Origin: a virus
Length of the DNA stretch: 64,000 nucleotides
Reading direction: 5' to 3' (one strand)
Virus record (IMG/VR): IMGVR_UViG_3300017971_000033
Each line of letters begins with the position of its first letter. The stretch's first letter is position 1. The position numbers and the translations under genes were made by a program. Positions 9,573-31,173 of this stretch are shown piece after piece. The notes under the pieces were generated by a model. That model searched no databases, had not been told where the DNA came from, and saw only the letters and a list, made by a program, of their open reading frames with translations.

Positions 9573-10103
9573 ATGAGCGATACATCTCTCAAGAGGAAGG
9601 AAGAAGGCGAAATCCTCAGAAGCCACGAGCGTTGGTTGCAGCAAGTAGTTCGGTCGGCGGTGAGTATATTCCCGCAGACAGTGGTGACAAACAAGATCGA
9701 GGATGCGATGCAGGAAGCGCGGAGCGAATTCTTGCGGTCTTATCGGAGATTTACGACTGAGGGCTGGCTTAATTCCTCGTTGAAGGGATTTTGTTACAAG
9801 CGAGTGCGCGGGGCGGCGATTGATTACATGCGCGGAAGAAGATCACAGCATGGATACCACTCCGTGGAATACGACGAGTCTTATGATTCTGTCAACTCCA
9901 TTGGAAGGTTTGAGGAAAGAATCGATCTCTCCCGCTTGCTTGCAATACTAGACGACCGTTCGCGGTCTGTGATATTTATGCACGACCTCGCAGGTATAAC
10001 CCTTGCCGACATAGGGAAGCATTTTGGTGTGACAGAAGGTAGAATATGTCAAATCAGATTAGCGGCTTTCGATCGGTTAAGGGAATTATCTAAACGTGAG
10101 TAA
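9573..10103 (+). CDS. sigma-70 family RNA polymerase sigma factor (regions 2 and 4 only)
   Basis: 176 aa. Region-2-like 'FLRSYRRF...GAAIDYMRGRR'. Region-4.2 HTH 'LDDRSRSVIFMHDLAGITLADIGKHFGVTEGRICQIRLAAFDRLRE'. Confidence 0.7.
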   Translation: MSDTSLKRKEEGEILRSHERWLQQVVRSAVSIFPQTVVTNKIEDAMQEARSEFLRSYRRFTTEGWLNSSLKGFCYKRVRGAAIDYMRGRRSQHGYHSVEYDESYDSVNSIGRFEERIDLSRLLAILDDRSRSVIFMHDLAGITLADIGKHFGVTEGRICQIRLAAFDRLRELSKRE

Positions 10104-19293: not shown

Positions 19294-20028
19294 TTATGTT
19301 TCCTCCTCCTTGGTGTAGCGAGTCACCGCATTATCAAAATCCTGCGGCGTGTTTATTGCCCTTCCTGACGTTTTGCAAGATGTCAGCCGCGGACAATATG
19401 CGGTCATCCCGTTTTCAAGCACTCGCATTTGCTCCAAGCCTTCTTGCTTCTCCAGCTCCCTGTTTGTCAACATGGTGTAAGCATCGAGGAAGGTTGGATA
19501 GTAGGCATAGATCCCGCAATGGCGTTTGGCCGCTGGTAAACCAACGCGGGTAAAATAAAGCGCCCTGTCATCCTTGCTGGTTATTACCTTGACTATTCCG
19601 GGATCATCGATCTCCGAGGATGATTGAAATTCCTCGTGCATGCAGAACAATGTTCGGTGCCGGTTATGGACTAGACATTCTTTTGCATACTGGTAGATCT
19701 CATCTATCGCCAGCGGATCCACCTCGAACTTGTCGCCTTGGACATTGATGATGACTTCGCTTAGCGGCAGGTCTAACCGCTTAACAAGATCGGCAACCCG
19801 CTCAGTCCCGTTAGCAAGGTTCGCGTATGTCATAGCGGTCTCTGCGCCGAACTGCCGGCAGACCTCCTCGACCTCCGGGGCATCGGTAGCAATCACAATA
19901 CGGTTAGCCGAAGCGGCTTGAGCGGCTCGCTCATAGGTATGTTGAATGATTGGCTTGCCGCCGATAATCCGCAGCGGTTTGTTCGGTAGGCGGTAGGATG
20001 CCGCCCTTGCAGGAATTACTATGATCAT
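19294..20028 (-). CDS. kdsB: 3-deoxy-manno-octulosonate cytidylyltransferase (CMP-Kdo synthetase) homologue
   Basis: 'IIVIPARAASYRLPNKPL..IGGKPIIQHTYERA', 'RIVIATD', 'GTERVADLV', 'INVQGD', 'ALYFTR', 'GIYAYY' and 'LEQMRVLENG' align along E. coli KdsB as I remember it. Confidence 0.85.
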   Translation of the reverse strand: MIIVIPARAASYRLPNKPLRIIGGKPIIQHTYERAAQAASANRIVIATDAPEVEEVCRQFGAETAMTYANLANGTERVADLVKRLDLPLSEVIINVQGDKFEVDPLAIDEIYQYAKECLVHNRHRTLFCMHEEFQSSSEIDDPGIVKVITSKDDRALYFTRVGLPAAKRHCGIYAYYPTFLDAYTMLTNRELEKQEGLEQMRVLENGMTAYCPRLTSCKTSGRAINTPQDFDNAVTRYTKEEET

Positions 20029-20061
20029 TTTCCTCTCCGGGCCTTCTGTGGTGACGTATGA

Positions 20062-20122
20062 GCCGCGAAAGGGGTTGAGGCCTTGTGGTTATACTACCGA
20101 GCCTCAGATCCCCTTTCGCGGC
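20062..20122. other. long imperfect hairpin upstream of kdsB-like gene
   Basis: 20062-20074 pairs with 20110-20122 (13 bp). 20076-20081 pairs with 20101-20106 (6 bp). The apical loop is 19 nt. Confidence 0.7.
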
Positions 20123-20136
20123 CGCTTATGAGGCCG

Positions 20137-20376
20137 TTATTCGGCCTCCTCCTCGCTTTCCCCCGAGCCATAAACGTTCTCGGTCGGCTTGATGTCCTCA
20201 GGCGGCTCGCCGTTGTCCCTGCGTTCTCGCCATTCGGCCATTAGCGATTTGACCTCGCCGTGACCTAAGCCATACTCCATGACGATTATGGCCCGAGCGG
20301 AATCAAGGTTGTCAGAGACCTCCAACTCATCAAGCAATCGGAAAATCTCGCGGCGGTTACTTTTGAATGTACTCAT
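20137..20376 (-). CDS. hypothetical acidic protein
   Basis: GGAGGAAAGCCC lies before ATG 20376 ('MSTFKSNRREIF'). Confidence 0.55.
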   Translation of the reverse strand: MSTFKSNRREIFRLLDELEVSDNLDSARAIIVMEYGLGHGEVKSLMAEWRERRDNGEPPEDIKPTENVYGSGESEEEAE

Positions 20377-20605
20377 GGGCTTTCCTCCGGTTTTGTTCAA
20401 TCAGGCGGTTTTCAACGGTTGGCCGCATCAGTTGAACGTTAGAGATCATCAAATCCATAAAGACTCGCTGCTGTTCGTCGCAGCCTTCCTTCATGGCACC
20501 TTTCAACAAGGCCTTGAACATATCGAGAGAGGTATCGAATCCTGACATAAAAACCCCTGACAACATATCCGCAAGTCCCTGCTGGTCCGTGTTTACTTCA
20601 ATCAT
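20357..20605 (-). CDS. hypothetical protein
   Basis: ATG 20605 ('MIEVNTDQQ') overlaps the nuclease stop. The long listed form (to 20905) runs antisense-free but inside the nuclease gene. Confidence 0.5.
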   Translation of the reverse strand: MIEVNTDQQGLADMLSGVFMSGFDTSLDMFKALLKGAMKEGCDEQQRVFMDLMISNVQLMRPTVENRLIEQNRRKAHEYIQK

Positions 20606-21539
20606 CAGCAGCCTCCTTGGTTGCTTCTTCCTTCGCCTTGCGATCTGCCGTTTCTTGTTTGAACTGGTGGCAGAAGTCTTTAACGTCACAATAACTATTG
20701 CAACGCTTATTCTCACCGAGAACAAGCTCAATAGAATATCCCTTCTTGAGACTACCATCCTCGACAAAGCCCTTCTGCTTGCAGTAGGCTTCCGCTTCCT
20801 CGATTGTCGGCAGGTTGCGGATGGATGACTTGCGCCCTTCTTTGCGGATCTTGTAGGTGTCACCGCTATACCACTTCTCATCCTTCGCGCAAGGTGGCAA
20901 TTCATGGTCGGGGTATTCCTTCGCCATAACGTGGAGAGAGAGGCGCTCGTTAATATAGCGCTCTATTTCCTCGTCAGACTTCGGCTCAATGACAATGCGC
21001 TGAACAGCCGCATCAGGCATGTTGGGATCTTCGCGGTGCCTGCGGTTAAAGTCGCGCAGGAAGGCAACAATCTCGATGCTGTCAACCTGATAGCCGGAGT
21101 GTCGAGCGAGATAGGCGTAGAGATTTAACTGGTCTGACCAGCGCTTGACTGTCTCGTCGCTGTTCATCGCATAAATACTCGTATCCTTGTAATCAACAAG
21201 AGCGGTCTCATCTTCGCTTGTCAGCAGGTCAAACTTGCCGGTCAGGATACCTTGCTCAAACTCCTTGCGCACTCTGTCCTCAACGATTCCTGTCTTGTTG
21301 GCGCGTTCCAGTGCGCCGTGCATTGATTTACCGCGAGCCGCAAAGATCATTTGATCTACGTCAACGATAATGTCATTCCAATGGCGACGGCGCAGTTGTA
21401 CTTGCTGCGGCGGTGACATCAAGGCGGTCACGCTTATGACGAACTTCTCTCCGGGTTTCGGTACATGGTAATCGTAATCATCGAGCATAATCAGATTAAC
21501 CAGTGCCTCCGGGAAATTCTGGCGGTTTGTGTATTTCAT
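20598..21539 (-). CDS. PD-(D/E)XK exonuclease, Cas4/RecB-like with C-terminal Cys cluster
   Basis: 'ALVDYKDTS' (D-x-K), 'DQLNLYAYLA' (Q..Y), N-proximal Cys plus 'CNSYCDVKDFC' (C-x3-C-x5-C). Confidence 0.7.
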   Translation of the reverse strand: MKYTNRQNFPEALVNLIMLDDYDYHVPKPGEKFVISVTALMSPPQQVQLRRRHWNDIIVDVDQMIFAARGKSMHGALERANKTGIVEDRVRKEFEQGILTGKFDLLTSEDETALVDYKDTSIYAMNSDETVKRWSDQLNLYAYLARHSGYQVDSIEIVAFLRDFNRRHREDPNMPDAAVQRIVIEPKSDEEIERYINERLSLHVMAKEYPDHELPPCAKDEKWYSGDTYKIRKEGRKSSIRNLPTIEEAEAYCKQKGFVEDGSLKKGYSIELVLGENKRCNSYCDVKDFCHQFKQETADRKAKEEATKEAADD

Positions 21540-25823: not shown

Positions 25824-25933
25824 TCTAAACTCCTTTCAGGATTCACCTGTCTCAGTTTGTGGTCTCGTCATCAGTATGCGGCGACCATCCCGCATAGACC
25901 GCATGTAGGGATGTCATGCGGTTTCTGTTGGTG

Positions 25934-27869: not shown

Positions 27870-28174
27870 TTGCCGCCCCTCGTAAGACCGCCCGCAAGCG
27901 GATGCCACTCATAAGCGCCGTTGTCATATTGATCCATGACTGCATCGCGCACGGCCATGACATCGCTCATGACAACCTCAATTGTTCCGAGCGGGTCGGA
28001 GTCGAAGTTAGGATCATCAAATACGATGTTGTGTTTTACCTTTCCGTAAACGCACCGCGAATGATCATTGAAAACCAAATCGCCTTCATCAGTGAAGCCG
28101 CAAGTAATGACTTGACCTTCTGCGGAGTATTGGCGACCGGTATTAAAAGTGAATTGTGCGACGATCTCAGACAT
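27866..28174 (-). CDS. hypothetical protein, paralogue B of tandem pair
   Basis: ATG 28174 overlaps the upstream stop (TGATG). Shares 'F(T)xxN...(D/E)G.(L/V)(L/V)F(K/N)DHS....GKV' and a C-terminal 'W..(A/L)AGGL' with the gene upstream. Confidence 0.55.
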   Translation of the reverse strand: MSEIVAQFTFNTGRQYSAEGQVITCGFTDEGDLVFNDHSRCVYGKVKHNIVFDDPNFDSDPLGTIEVVMSDVMAVRDAVMDQYDNGAYEWHPLAGGLTRGGK

Positions 28175-28419
28175 CAGACTTCCCTCCATACTGGTTTCAG
28201 TCCGGCAGCGACTGCGTTCCAATCAAAGAAGCCGACAGAGCGTGAAGAGTCAACAATGTCTTGCACGGTTTCCTGCGGCGTGTCGGTATTAAGAAGGCAG
28301 AAGGCGACCTTGCCGCACTGCTGCGTTGAATGGTCTTTGAATAAAACCGCACCGTCATCCAATACGGCGACGGTGACGGCTTTTGATTCGTCATTGGTGT
28401 AGGTGAATTTAAGTTTCAT
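28174..28419 (-). CDS. hypothetical protein, paralogue A of tandem pair
   Basis: AGGGAG lies 7 nt before ATG 28419 ('MKLKFTYTND'). Confidence 0.55.
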   Translation of the reverse strand: MKLKFTYTNDESKAVTVAVLDDGAVLFKDHSTQQCGKVAFCLLNTDTPQETVQDIVDSSRSVGFFDWNAVAAGLKPVWREV

Positions 28420-28467
28420 AATCATTCTCCCTTTAAGTAAGAAGTCTAAAACCAGTTGGCGCAGGTT

Positions 28468-28539
28468 TTAGTGAGTGGCGTGGATGTAGTAAAGCGTTGC
28501 GGACAAAACAACAACGATCAAAAGAGCAAAAGTAGTCAT
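28468..28539 (-). CDS. 23-codon hydrophobic peptide ORF at head of leftward operon
   Basis: GAGGAA lies 6 nt before ATG 28539. 'MTTFALLIVVVLSATLYYIHATH'. It sits directly downstream of the terminator-like hairpin at 28561-28586. Confidence 0.35.
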   Translation of the reverse strand: MTTFALLIVVVLSATLYYIHATH

Positions 28540-28560
28540 GGTGATTTCCTCGATATGCGG

Positions 28561-28586
28561 TTGATAAAGACACCGTAAGCGGTGCC
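28561..28586 (-). terminator. terminator-like hairpin valid only as minus-strand RNA
   Basis: The minus strand reads GGCACCG-CUUA-CGGUGUC followed by UUUAUCAA. The stem contains a G-U that would be A-C on the plus strand. Confidence 0.45.
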
Positions 28587-28617
28587 TTTATTGCCGCACA
28601 CCTTTCGGCGTGCAGTC

Positions 28618-28630
28618 CTTCCGGGAAGTT
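28618..28630. repeat. 13-nt near-palindrome CTTCCGGGAAGTT, copy 1
   Basis: Exact repeat of 28947-28959. Confidence 0.9.
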
Positions 28631-28946
28631 GGCAGACAATCCGTGACACTGCGATGCGTTTTAGCGGTCGCGCCATGTCATTCTGTTGTCGGCGATCTTC
28701 CGTTCCGGTTGGGTTTGGTCCTTTTCGGTTTCCCCTAACAAGGCGGCTCGTGGTTGTTCTCAACTCAGCCTTGTCGCCGCTATCCGTGCGGCGGGGGTTT
28801 TCTTTTGGTCTTGGTGGAAGGTGGCGGGGAGGGTTTTAAAAATCTTGACTAAAGATCTTTTAGGTTTCCGCTTTTAGTTTGCCGCTCGCTCTTTTAACCT
28901 TGAATCGGCTTGCGCCTCGGTCCGCTCGTCTTAGGGAGGTTGGATT

Positions 28947-28959
28947 CTTCCGGGAAGTT
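28947..28959. repeat. 13-nt near-palindrome CTTCCGGGAAGTT, copy 2
   Basis: Exact repeat of 28618-28630, 329 bp away. Confidence 0.9.
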
Positions 28960-29507
28960 TCCGTGGGGGCTTGCTGCGTTCCAGTTGGACGGTCTTGGCA
29001 ATTCCATTCAACCCTGTCTCGAGTCGGATGCGGTTTGGCAATCATCTTGCTATTCCACTTTGACTCAGCCGCGCTTTAGCGTTTCCTGATCCTCTTCGGA
29101 TCCCCGATCACCTCGGTCCCCTTTCGCGCTGTTGACAGGTGAGATGGTTTCCCGACTTACTCCCTGCAATAAATCCGCTAATCAGTTTGGCGTTTCTTCC
29201 GCGGCTTACTGCTCTTGAAGGCGTCCTTGCCTTCCCTTCTAATCCCGCGGTGGCTGGCTTGGTCTCAAGCCCTTGCCCCGTTCGGGATGACGTCATGCCT
29301 GACGCCAGATTTAATATTGCCTTGCCTATTTCCATATGTACATAGTTATGGTAGCTTATCTATCGGCTCGGGAACTGGATGCCTTAATTCATCCTAACTC
29401 CTTGATCCGTAAAGCGAAAAACAGCCGAAAATACAGAGACCTCTGAACTGGCTGACTCCTGCTTTTGCTCATAATACTAATTAATTCAGCAACTTAGGAG
29501 TGATATC

Positions 29508-29708
29508 ATGCTAGAAGCCCGTAGCCTTAAAATCGTAATAAAGCAAGCCGGCGGTCCTTCCGCAGTTTCCCGGAGAACCGGATTCTCACGGCAAGCTATC
29601 CATTCATGGATTAACCGCGGAGACATCCCACGCGCCACAAGGCGCAAGTTAGAAGCCGCTGGTATTTCAACAACAACGCTGCTGCCGTTTGGCACTGACT
29701 GGAAATAG
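29508..29708 (+). CDS. Cro/YdaS-like HTH regulator
   Basis: AGGAG lies before the ATG. 'AGGPSAVSRRTGFSRQAIHSWINRGDIP' is a Cro/YdaS-type HTH. First gene of the rightward operon. Confidence 0.65.
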   Translation: MLEARSLKIVIKQAGGPSAVSRRTGFSRQAIHSWINRGDIPRATRRKLEAAGISTTTLLPFGTDWK

Positions 29709-29710
29709 TG

Positions 29711-29734
29711 AATTGTATATTTGAATATACAATT
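29711..29734. promoter_or_regulatory. 24-bp AT-rich palindrome (operator or hairpin)
   Basis: AATTGTATATT (29711-21) and AATATACAATT (29724-34) are exact reverse complements separated by 2 nt. Confidence 0.6.
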
Positions 29735-30050
29735 GCTTGACACTCCAAACAGTTCGCTTCCCGGTTTACTGTCACAGCTTGGCTGTGTCGTTTGCCTTCG
29801 CTTAGGTTATGGCGAAACGCCCGCAGAGATTCACCACTTGCGCAGCGGCGCAGGTATCGCGCAGCGAAGCGACAACAGCCGTGCCATTCCCCTATGCCAC
29901 CTTCACCATCGCAATGGCGGTTATGGTGTTGCGTTCCACGCAGGGCCAAGGGAGTTTGAACGGCTGTTCGGCACTGAGGAGGAGTTGTTGGAATACACGC
30001 ACAACTTACTCGAAACCAAAATCAAACGAGGTGAGATATGTACGAAGTAA
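29721..30050 (+). CDS. Ref-like RecA-dependent nuclease (HNH-type); start codon uncertain
   Basis: 'CVVC...EIHHLRSGAG...IPLCHLHHRNGG...FH' matches the P1 Ref-family pattern. Only TTG starts (29721, 29733) are available. Confidence 0.6.
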   Translation: MNIQLLDTPNSSLPGLLSQLGCVVCLRLGYGETPAEIHHLRSGAGIAQRSDNSRAIPLCHLHHRNGGYGVAFHAGPREFERLFGTEEELLEYTHNLLETKIKRGEICTK

Positions 30051-30367: not shown

Positions 30368-31173
30368 ATGACGAGCGTTATGGTTTCAAGGGCGTCTTTA
30401 TCCCGGCCGCAGTGTGGAAGGATCATCGGCTAAACGCACTGGAGATGGTGTTACTGACAGAAATCTTCTATCTGTCAAACGGGAAAACACCTTGCATTGC
30501 GTCAAACCAGTATTTGGCGACATTCATCAAGCGGGATAAGCGGACTGCTAAACGGATAGTTAGCAAGTTAGAGGAGTGCGGTTATATTCGCACCGAGGTT
30601 GACCGGGACGATCAGAGAGTAGTTACGCAAAGACGTATATTTGTGGATGCCGCTTTGTATCATGGAGTTGATACCCCTAGTGACAAAAATGTCCCCACCC
30701 CTCGTGACAAAAATGTCCCTACCCCTAGTGACAAAAATGTCCCCTATAGTAATAAAAGACCTTTTAGTAATAATAAAACCATATTGTGCGAAAACAACAA
30801 AAAGGAATCAGTGGAACGGTTTGAGGAATTCTGGCAGGCTTACCCCTCGGGATACCGAAAGGGAGGGAAAAAGAAAGCCCGAGATATTTGGAAACGTAAA
30901 AACCTCGATAAGATCGCTGACGCACTTATTGCTGATGTCGGTCTCCGGGCTGCAAAAGACCGGTCATGGCTTGACGGCTATATTCCGATGACGACAACAT
31001 ACCTGAACCAAGAGAGGTGGCAAGACGATATACAAACCGCAGGACCGAAACAAAAGGAAACCGCAGAAGATCGGCGACAAGCCCGACGCAAGCGGATTGA
31101 GGAAAGAGAAAACAAAATCAACGGCAAAATCATCGAGGGGGAATACCATGCAGAAATTAATAAACTTGTCTGA
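30364..31173 (+). CDS. replication initiator (lambda O-like architecture)
   Basis: N-terminal wHTH ('NQYLATFIKRDKRTAKRIVSKLEECGYI'). The central linker is encoded by the iterons. The C-terminal domain is followed by a P-like gene. Confidence 0.6.
   Translation: MNDERYGFKGVFIPAAVWKDHRLNALEMVLLTEIFYLSNGKTPCIASNQYLATFIKRDKRTAKRIVSKLEECGYIRTEVDRDDQRVVTQRRIFVDAALYHGVDTPSDKNVPTPRDKNVPTPSDKNVPYSNKRPFSNNKTILCENNKKESVERFEEFWQAYPSGYRKGGKKKARDIWKRKNLDKIADALIADVGLRAAKDRSWLDGYIPMTTTYLNQERWQDDIQTAGPKQKETAEDRRQARRKRIEERENKINGKIIEGEYHAEINKLV
30673..30805. promoter_or_regulatory. putative origin of replication: 3 x 24-bp iterons + AT-rich tract
   Basis: 30673-30696, 30697-30720 and 30721-30744 = ACCCCT(A/C)GTGACAAAAATGTCCC(C/T). 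Next comes TATAGTAATAAAAGACCTTTTAGTAATAATAAAACC... (30745-30805). Confidence 0.6.

Follow-up and report, generated by a model that had tools for sequence, protein, structure and literature searches.

A strand-asymmetric, non-coding block between the divergent operons of a phage genome as a candidate long leader RNA

Introduction

Several described phage elements act as RNA close to the start of an early operon. The nut site of phage lambda has two parts on the transcribed strand, boxA (CGCUCUUA / UGCUCUUUAACAA) and, after it, a boxB hairpin. A put-type RNA, as in HK022, lies just downstream of an early promoter, adopts a conserved fold of ~70 nt with two stem-loops that covariation supports, and acts in cis on RNA polymerase. 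In P4 immunity, the leader of the early-left transcript is processed into the CI RNA, which pairs with seqA and seqC; a short segment, seqB, is complementary to these two segments of the same leader. Here, we analyzed a 64,000-nt stretch of viral DNA (IMG/VR record IMGVR_UViG_3300017971_000033; hereafter the window, whose coordinates are used throughout), with the focus on the block between its leftward genes, which run from 28425 down to ~12450, and its rightward genes, which run from 29508 on.

This non-coding block is real, unusual, and an orphan. The explanation that we prefer, and hold tentatively, is that it would be transcribed leftward into a U-poor, untranslated leader or non-coding RNA (ncRNA) of ~740 nt that gates the early-left operon. 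A first-pass annotation had proposed a long ncRNA or an RNA-based control element at this place. The general idea survives, with minus-strand-specific structure and no coding signal, but the particular roles suggested at that time (P4 CI RNA, put, and a protein hub at GTTTCC sites) gain no support.

Results

The block lacks coding signal and is poor in A on the plus strand

No gene was called by JGI between 28419 and 29508. The period-3 signal of the block was 1.1. Coding stretches with a single gene reached 4.0–12.7, and a value of 0.98 was obtained for a control stretch that spans several genes. When all six frames of the block were searched by hmmscan against Pfam and PHROGs (E ≤ 1), only two chance-level rows were returned, none below E 0.37. 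The view that no frame is protein-like was confirmed for 28540–29507, where gene calls, period-3 signal, and matches to Pfam or PHROG families are all absent. The same six-frame search served as the check for a decayed repressor, and no remnant was found. A decayed protein gene (e.g., for a CI repressor) was therefore rejected, with no family similarity in six frames and a period-3 signal of only 1.1. The gene-free interval had been given as 28426–29507. This holds from ~28540 onward, but not before, because a 23-codon open reading frame (ORF) with a Shine-Dalgarno sequence sits at 28468–28539, inside that interval.

The base composition of the block is dominated by one segment:

28655–29368, minus strand: skewed non-coding core (plus-strand counts T 240, C 192, G 185, A 97)

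The plus strand of this core contains 13.5% A, and the skew is uniform over all 714 nt, which form the maximum-scoring segment of T over A. The A-poorest 700-nt stretch of the window is located here (A 0.13 compared to a mean of 0.25 with a standard deviation (SD) of 0.029, i.e., ~4 SD below; AT skew −0.43). The strand asymmetry described earlier was reproduced, with 4 A in 28681–28740 and 5 A in 28741–28800. A minus-strand RNA of 28655–29368 would be rich in A and poor in U, with 60% purines. The leftward genes are skewed with the same sign, having more A than T on the sense strand, but the skew of the block is fourfold stronger.

RNA structure is enriched on the minus strand

The folding of 28560–29310 was compared with that of 120 shuffled sequences per strand, and 28 windows of the same length served as controls. 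The minimum free energy of the minus strand was −254.4 kcal/mol, compared to −224.6 ± 7.2 kcal/mol for the shuffled sequences (z −4.15), none of which (0/120) folded as low. The plus-strand fold gave z −2.42. Contiguous stems of ≥7 bp, for which real and shuffled sequences were counted alike, were more frequent than expected on the minus strand (12 versus 2.1 ± 1.8 in shuffles) and at the expected level on the plus strand (9 versus 8.7 ± 3.7). The three hairpins previously predicted to close fully only as minus-strand RNA are present at 29289–29306, 28596–28613, and 28569–28586; each contains one G-U pair in this RNA, where the plus strand has an A-C mismatch. All the perfect stems listed with them were also found (29256–29271, 29217–29234, 28775–28793, and 28738–28744/28768–28774). 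The description of the region as hairpin-rich is correct for the minus strand at the two ends of the block, but not for the plus strand, which is at chance, nor for the centre, since sliding windows confined the excess to the two ends and showed none in 28775–29075. These strand results favour a leftward RNA, although they are not decisive.

The opposite direction is very unlikely. In that case, the block would be a long, U-rich, A-poor leader of the cro/early-right operon, with intrinsic attenuators that are overcome by antitermination. Four plus-strand sites with a hairpin and a T-run (28571–84, 28774–94, 28783–95, and 29176–92) speak for such a leader, together with 6 terminator-like sites on both strands compared to 2.2 ± 1.6 in shuffles, a boxA-like CGCUCUUUUAAC on the plus strand at 28886–28898, and TTCCGGGAA sites oriented as those in the rightward genes. 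However, the number of plus-strand hairpins is at chance (25 versus 21.7; 9 versus 8.7 for stems of ≥7 bp), T-runs are expected after any hairpin on a strand with 32% T, and the boxA-like word occurs at chance frequency with no boxB. Moreover, a plausible promoter with a short leader is available to the rightward operon at 29448–29475, and the sense strands of this phage have more A than T, which is the opposite of the plus strand here.

Of the control windows, the most extreme fold was that of 20000–20750 on the minus strand, with z −6.9 against 18 shuffles; the plus strand of this window gave z −3.1. This is leftward coding DNA (182-aa and PDDEXK genes), which may hold an embedded RNA structure.

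Parts of the proposed leftward RNA

Along the minus strand, the preferred leftward RNA would comprise or precede the following features:

29154–29307, minus strand: proposed structured 5′ domain with four hairpins (206-nt fold, z −3.38, 0/200 shuffles as low)
28793–28870, minus strand: C-rich, G-poor stretch (C 27, G 8 in 78 nt) with no excess structure
28564–28615, minus strand: tandem 3′ hairpins with one G-U pair each on this strand and stems of 9 and 12 bp
28468–28539, minus strand: small ORF of 23 codons encoding the hydrophobic MTTFALLIVVVLSATLYYIHATH, preceded at 7 nt by a GAGGA Shine-Dalgarno, uncalled by JGI

The four hairpins of the 5′ domain are located at 29307–29288 (GGCGUCA-GGCA-UGACGUC), 29271–29256, 29234–29217, and 29175–29154, and sliding-window z values across 29154–29307 were −3.4 to −3.7. 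The domain also contains the 10-bp DNA palindrome ATGACGTCAT at 29287–29296. In the ensemble of the minus-strand RNA, 74% of A residues were unpaired, and the middle is rich in single-stranded A. Rho loads at C-rich, G-poor RNA, and the composition of 28793–28870 resembles that of a Rho-loading (rut) site. At the other end, the first 3′ hairpin, CUGCACGCC-GAAA-GGUGUGCGG (28615–28594), is followed by the second, AUAAAGGCACCG-CUUA-CGGUGUCUUUAU (28591–28564), and then by CAACC. These tandem hairpins are a candidate pause, terminator, or attenuator. The 23-codon ORF is the first ORF downstream of them. Because only 12 nt lie between the last hairpin and its GAGGA, the left operon must be read through the hairpins. 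The product of this ORF has no match among protein families. In this respect it is reminiscent of type I toxins, where a small membrane peptide likewise follows a long leader with structure.

From this layout we infer a course of events that extends from the promoter and the direction of transcription to the involvement of Rho and any regulatory effect. Leftward transcription would start near 29306 from a promoter in the AT-balanced flank beside cro, and its product would be an untranslated, purine-rich, U-poor RNA of ~740 nt, the 5′ leader of the early-left operon. The 5′ end of this RNA would form the four-hairpin domain (29307–29154). Its middle would be mostly single-stranded and rich in A and C, and Rho could load there at the C-rich, G-poor stretch. 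The 3′ end would consist of the two strong tandem hairpins (28615–28564), which precede the small ORF with its Shine-Dalgarno and then the first long gene. The role of the leader would most likely be exerted in cis, by gating or delaying the read-through of polymerase into the left operon via attenuation or antitermination, with the untranslated stretch and the terminal hairpins as the gating sites. The leader could also stabilize the transcript, since an RNA with so little U lacks U-tracts and contains few sites for RNase E.

The same minus-strand and structure evidence would be expected of a stand-alone, trans-acting ncRNA of ~740 nt that ends at the tandem hairpins and serves as a protein sponge or scaffold (e.g., for Hfq or a CsrA-like protein), or as a large folded RNA with its own function. 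We consider this unlikely. Hfq binds A-rich ARN repeats and CsrA-like proteins bind GGA, and the block has discrete edges (28655–29368), the 74% unpaired A residues given above, and an excess of AAG (33 versus 22.7 expected), GGA (28 versus 18.8, z 2.6), and GGAA (16 versus 8.2) words in the minus-strand RNA. Its 3′ hairpins also look like the end of a small RNA (the match to BSnc120 is not significant). On the other hand, these word excesses are modest (z 2.6–3.2, uncorrected for multiple testing), and GGA is no more exposed than bases are on average (0.44 for both). Rfam yielded no match, no complementary target was seen elsewhere in the window, and the centre is not structured. In addition, no separate promoter for the left operon is visible downstream of the tandem hairpins, so termination at them cannot be complete.

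The right flank as the probable switch

Next to the skewed core lies a short region of different composition:

29310–29507, no strand assigned: AT-balanced right flank with candidate promoters, a palindrome, a direct repeat, and the cro Shine-Dalgarno

This region is likely the true divergent switch. The candidate for the leftward promoter (P_L) is TGTACA-18-AATATT on the minus strand, 29342 to 29313, which overlaps the palindrome TATGTACATA (29335–29344). The candidate for the rightward promoter (P_R) is CTGGCT-16-CATAAT on the plus strand, 29448–29475. An 11-nt direct repeat is located at 29415–29436. The A-poor core can hardly hold a TATAAT-like −10 element on either strand, so the only plausible place for a left-operon promoter is in the AT-balanced flank, at 29330–29507, where we infer that it sits. 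The start predicted from the P_L candidate, a weak one that agrees at 8/12 positions, coincides with the first hairpin of the 29307–29154 domain. The skewed block begins beside the only promoter-capable flank upstream of the left operon and ends at the tandem hairpins.

Within the flank, upstream of the P_L candidate, the minus strand contains a mini-ORF of two codons (AUG AAU UAA, 29384–29403) with a perfect AAGGAG 5 nt before it; this may be chance.

Repeats and short motifs

The repeated motifs in the block are as follows:

28618–28630, no strand assigned: exact 13-mer CTTCCGGGAAGTT, copy 1, with the palindromic core CTTCC-G-GGAAG
28947–28959, no strand assigned: exact 13-mer CTTCCGGGAAGTT, copy 2, overlapping one GTTTCC site
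28728, 28864, 28957, 29081, and 29147, minus strand: the five occurrences of GTTTCC, which read GGAAAC on this strand, with a GTTTCT variant at 29192

The two copies of CTTCCGGGAAGTT are 329 bp apart, and this repeat is probably real. Its core palindrome, TTCCNGGAA, occurs 6 times in the window (10676, 28619, 28948, 35690, 48302, and 60754) compared to 1.04 ± 0.95 expected, and 0/100 shuffles reached 6. Five of the six copies read TTCCGGGAA on the plus strand, mostly as CTTCCGGGAAG. Judged by this distribution, TTCCNGGAA may be a dispersed regulator or methylase site. It is possible that CTTCCGGGAAGTT/TTCCNGGAA is a protein site, which would leave the 714-nt skew unexplained.

The positions of the GTTTCC sites and of the variant at 29192 agree with those first reported. 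Fewer than one occurrence had been estimated by chance, and the expectation is indeed 0.67 against 5 observed (p = 0.0005). However, the choice of this hexamer was post hoc: in ~31% of dinucleotide shuffles some hexamer is present ≥5 times, so the enrichment is not significant. The idea of a protein-binding hub at these sites lapses once the choice of hexamer is allowed for. On the minus strand, three of the sites are followed by GUCAA 10, 14, and 16 nt further on, and this varying spacing argues against the sites being promoters. An array of promoters for an extracytoplasmic function (ECF) sigma factor, which would each have a GGAAC-like −35 element at a constant distance from a conserved −10 element, was likewise rejected, given the GGAAAC-GTCAA spacing of 10/14/16 nt and only 8 occurrences of the generalized motif in the window compared to 4.4 expected.

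Such motifs are the basis for regarding the block as a DNA-level control region, i.e., a spacer with operators for DNA-binding proteins of the phage or the host, which could act by DNA looping or operon insulation, with the skew being incidental. The operators could be the two CTTCCGGGAAGTT palindromes, ATGACGTCAT, AAAGATCTTT, TATGTACATA, and the GTTTCC sites. We give this reading some weight but consider it improbable. The exact 13-mer occurs twice where ~0.01–0.03 such pairs would be expected by chance (a rough estimate made with no tool), the excess of TTCCNGGAA in the window (6 versus 1.04; 0/100 shuffles) and several perfect 10-bp palindromes are consistent with protein sites, and a cro-like helix-turn-helix (HTH) gene adjoins. 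However, 100–200 bp is normally enough for a switch with its operators and promoters, and 29310–29507 is already such a segment. Protein sites would explain neither a uniform depletion of A on one strand over 714 nt nor the better closure of hairpins on one strand, and the sequences flanking the GTTTCC sites are not conserved.

Searches for homologues

Neither blastn of the block against GenBank phages and PLSDB plasmids nor nhmmer against 59 fetched loci detected a homologue. When IMG/VR was scanned for the double palindrome and for the 21-mer 29283–29303, one match was obtained, located in coding DNA and attributed to chance. The neighbouring proteins were equally isolated. Cro has no relative among 5.8 billion proteins, and the best relative of Rep is 38% identical, with the relatives in unrelated contexts. 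The 83-aa left-hand protein (28174–28425) and a 181-aa protein have no relatives in IMG/VR, and a concatenated query of seven left-operon proteins gave no match. In 36 loci with the RecA-dependent nuclease, no region was similar to the block. One related phage was found by TerL (64% identity); within its 10-kb flank only the structural module is in common, and the switch region lies beyond that flank. A metagenome scan with TerL gave at least 8 loci, with up to 50% identity among the matches listed, which did not include the window's own contig. In Roseobacter phage CRP-901, which has the nearest TerL in GenBank (38%), the switch is 120 nt long with no comparable gap.

This isolation bears on whether the block is non-functional filler, the eroded remnant of a lost gene or of inserted foreign DNA, with a skew that arose from mutation bias. 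With no homologue in the collections searched, there is no evidence of constraint; the adjacent cro and rep genes are themselves orphans, and the TerL-64% relative has only the structural module in common. Filler is nevertheless distinctly unlikely. No frame contains a protein-family remnant, phage genomes are compact, and the block is apparently the largest uncalled gap where the gene calls of the window were seen. Its skew is uniform and ~4 SD outside the rest of the genome, its excess of structure is strand-specific, and it contains a repeated exact 13-mer.

Genome setting and neighbouring genes

Over the 20.2 kb compared, the window is identical to JGI contig Ga0180437_10000512 (sample 3300017963; 74,668 bp). 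An ENA assembly of 74,686 bp is the same genome in another circular permutation, so the phage genome is probably complete at ~74.6 kb. Its tail genes are of the gene transfer agent (GTA)/phiJL001 type (DUF2460, Phage_BR0599, and Rcc01698_C), and the closest terminases in GenBank, 35–38% identical, are from Roseobacter and Paracoccus phages. Based on these two features, the host is probably an alphaproteobacterium.

The cumulative GC skew has its minimum at the divergent region. To the right, the gene at 29508 is the cro-like HTH gene, and rep is located further rightward. The first-pass annotation had expected a repressor between the two operons. This premise is weak, because neither an integrase nor a CI-type repressor appears among the Pfam tags, which cover most of the genes called in the window.

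Directly after the cro stop lies an inverted repeat with arms of ~11 bp, AATTGTATATT-TGA-ATATACAATT (~29711–29737), and next to it CTTGACA. The half-sites of the inverted repeat, TGTAYA, are similar to TATGTACATA (29335–29344). The two may be Cro operators, or the inverted repeat may be a terminator followed by a promoter. The plus strand at 29721–30050 encodes a RecA-dependent nuclease homologue with a TTG start (PF16786, E 6e-11; phrog_1588, E 5e-30), which was uncalled by JGI. The window also encodes a phage ECF-type sigma factor of 176 aa (9573–10103, plus strand; Sigma70_r2 and Sigma70_r4; TIGR02937, 66.6 bits compared to a cutoff of 42.9), whose gene is located after the lysis genes.

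The block was also considered as a replication origin, for which initiator-binding iterons and an AT-rich unwinding element, with or without DnaA boxes, would be expected, and this was rejected: it has no iterons beyond a 14-mer in 2 copies, no DnaA or CtrA boxes, and no excess of GANTC. The rep gene, in contrast, contains three tandem 24-bp repeats ACCCCTAGTGACAAAAATGTCCCC at 30673–30800 (TRF score 130), which encode PSDKNVPT repeats and are followed by an AT-rich stretch. By analogy with lambda O, the origin would be inside this initiator gene. With the iterons and the AT-rich stretch inside rep, the block is not the origin.

Discussion

Comparison of the explanations

Several observations weigh against a leftward leader. 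The P_L and P_R candidates each match at only 8/12 positions, a stricter promoter scan detects neither, and the promoter type of the host may differ. The terminal hairpin fails a strict terminator rule on the minus strand and passes it on the plus strand only; the plus strand also has terminator-like hairpins with T-runs, and the boxA-like GCTCTTTTAAC. Windows of 150 nt within the block have a mean z of −1.0, compared to −0.8 in the coding flanks, and one of the 28 control windows folds better than the block (z −6.9; mean z of the controls −0.36, SD 2.15). The block has no homologue in the collections searched, and hence no support from conservation or covariation. Finally, nothing known would account for such length or such skew in a leader.

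A bolder alternative is that the block encodes an unseen, large (~0.75 kb), U-depleted phage RNA with its own function, which would found a new RNA class. At the early switch, such an RNA could take the place of a repressor or antiterminator protein; alternatively, its target could be an RNA-binding protein or a ribonuclease of the host, which it would titrate. We regard this as a long shot.

If the preferred leftward RNA exists and has a regulatory role, a whole early operon would be controlled by a leader of unusual length and extreme composition. The phage itself has no obvious protein repressor and is a member of a little-studied group whose hosts are probably alphaproteobacteria. The question would then be why U was purged, with the avoidance of termination, of RNase E, of start and stop codons, or of U-specific defence nucleases as candidate answers. 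As a single orphan sequence at present, the block is a lead for transcriptomics rather than a finding.

Comparison with known RNA classes

The Rfam search proposed in the first pass was run, and the block belongs to no family: with Rfam 15 (4227 families, among them GOLLD, ROOL, C4/CI-like antisense RNAs, riboswitches, ribozymes, and group I and II introns), nothing in 28426–29507 reached the gathering thresholds. At E ≤ 10, the best match was BSnc120 (19.7 bits compared to a gathering threshold of 114, E 0.2), a weak resemblance in shape at the 3′ hairpins that is not significant. The sole Rfam match in the window is a type II hammerhead (RF02276) at 25858–25926 on the minus strand, 2.5 kb away (42.1 bits compared to 37, E 3e-5). 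Its location is intergenic within the leftward operon, with a small hydrophobic ORF on one side and the 182-aa gene (25823–25275) on the other, and it would self-cleave the early-left polycistronic RNA. Trans-antisense RNA was rejected as a class for the block, as no complementary target was found elsewhere in the window.

The block has some likeness to CsrB/RsmZ, in being a presumptive long non-coding RNA with many GGA (28) and GGAA (16) words and repeated GGAAAC. Unlike in these RNAs, GGA is not located preferentially in loops, and there is no Rfam match. A CsrB/RsmZ-type sponge was rejected, with GGA enriched only 1.5-fold and its mean unpaired probability (0.44) equal to the RNA-wide mean. 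To our knowledge, CsrA is absent from many members of the inferred alphaproteobacterial host group. GOLLD and ROOL share with the block the size class of 0.6–0.8 kb, the location in phages, and A-rich unpaired regions, but the block matches no Rfam model (matches at E ≤ 10 are insignificant) and its centre has no excess structure.

The analogy with the P4 CI RNA lies in a non-coding leader that stands where one might look for a protein repressor, in a phage with no obvious CI-type repressor. In contrast to P4, this phage has no seqA/B/C repeats, no tRNA-like or CI/C4-like RNA (ARAGORN and Rfam), and no P4-like genes. A repeat search and self-BLAST of the block gave only the 13-mer direct repeat, with inverted matches of 72–80% at chance E-values, and ARAGORN detected no tRNA or tmRNA. 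With no complementary segments of the seqA/B/C type and no tRNA-like RNA, the P4 analogy was abandoned.

The analogy with HK022 put is not supported either. At ~740 nt, the block is about tenfold longer than a put or nut element, its minus strand has no boxA or boxB, no N-like protein was identified, and there is no sequence or Rfam match. A nut site was rejected, as the sole boxA-like word, GCTCTTTTAAC, is on the plus strand (28888) with no boxB after it; with ≤1 mismatch, GCTCTTTTAAC occurs at 2 places in the window compared to 0.97 expected, and 22/100 shuffles reach 2. We know of no put- or nut-type element with extreme U depletion. A leftward RNA of this kind, if real and regulatory, would extend the architecture of RNA-based switches beyond the enterobacterial models (lambda N/nut, HK022 put, and P4 CI). 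What the block has in common with attenuated long leaders, nutL, and put is its position, between a putative early promoter that directly precedes it and the first early-left ORF, and its layout, with a structured 5′ part, an untranslated C-rich stretch, and strong hairpins that have to be read through.

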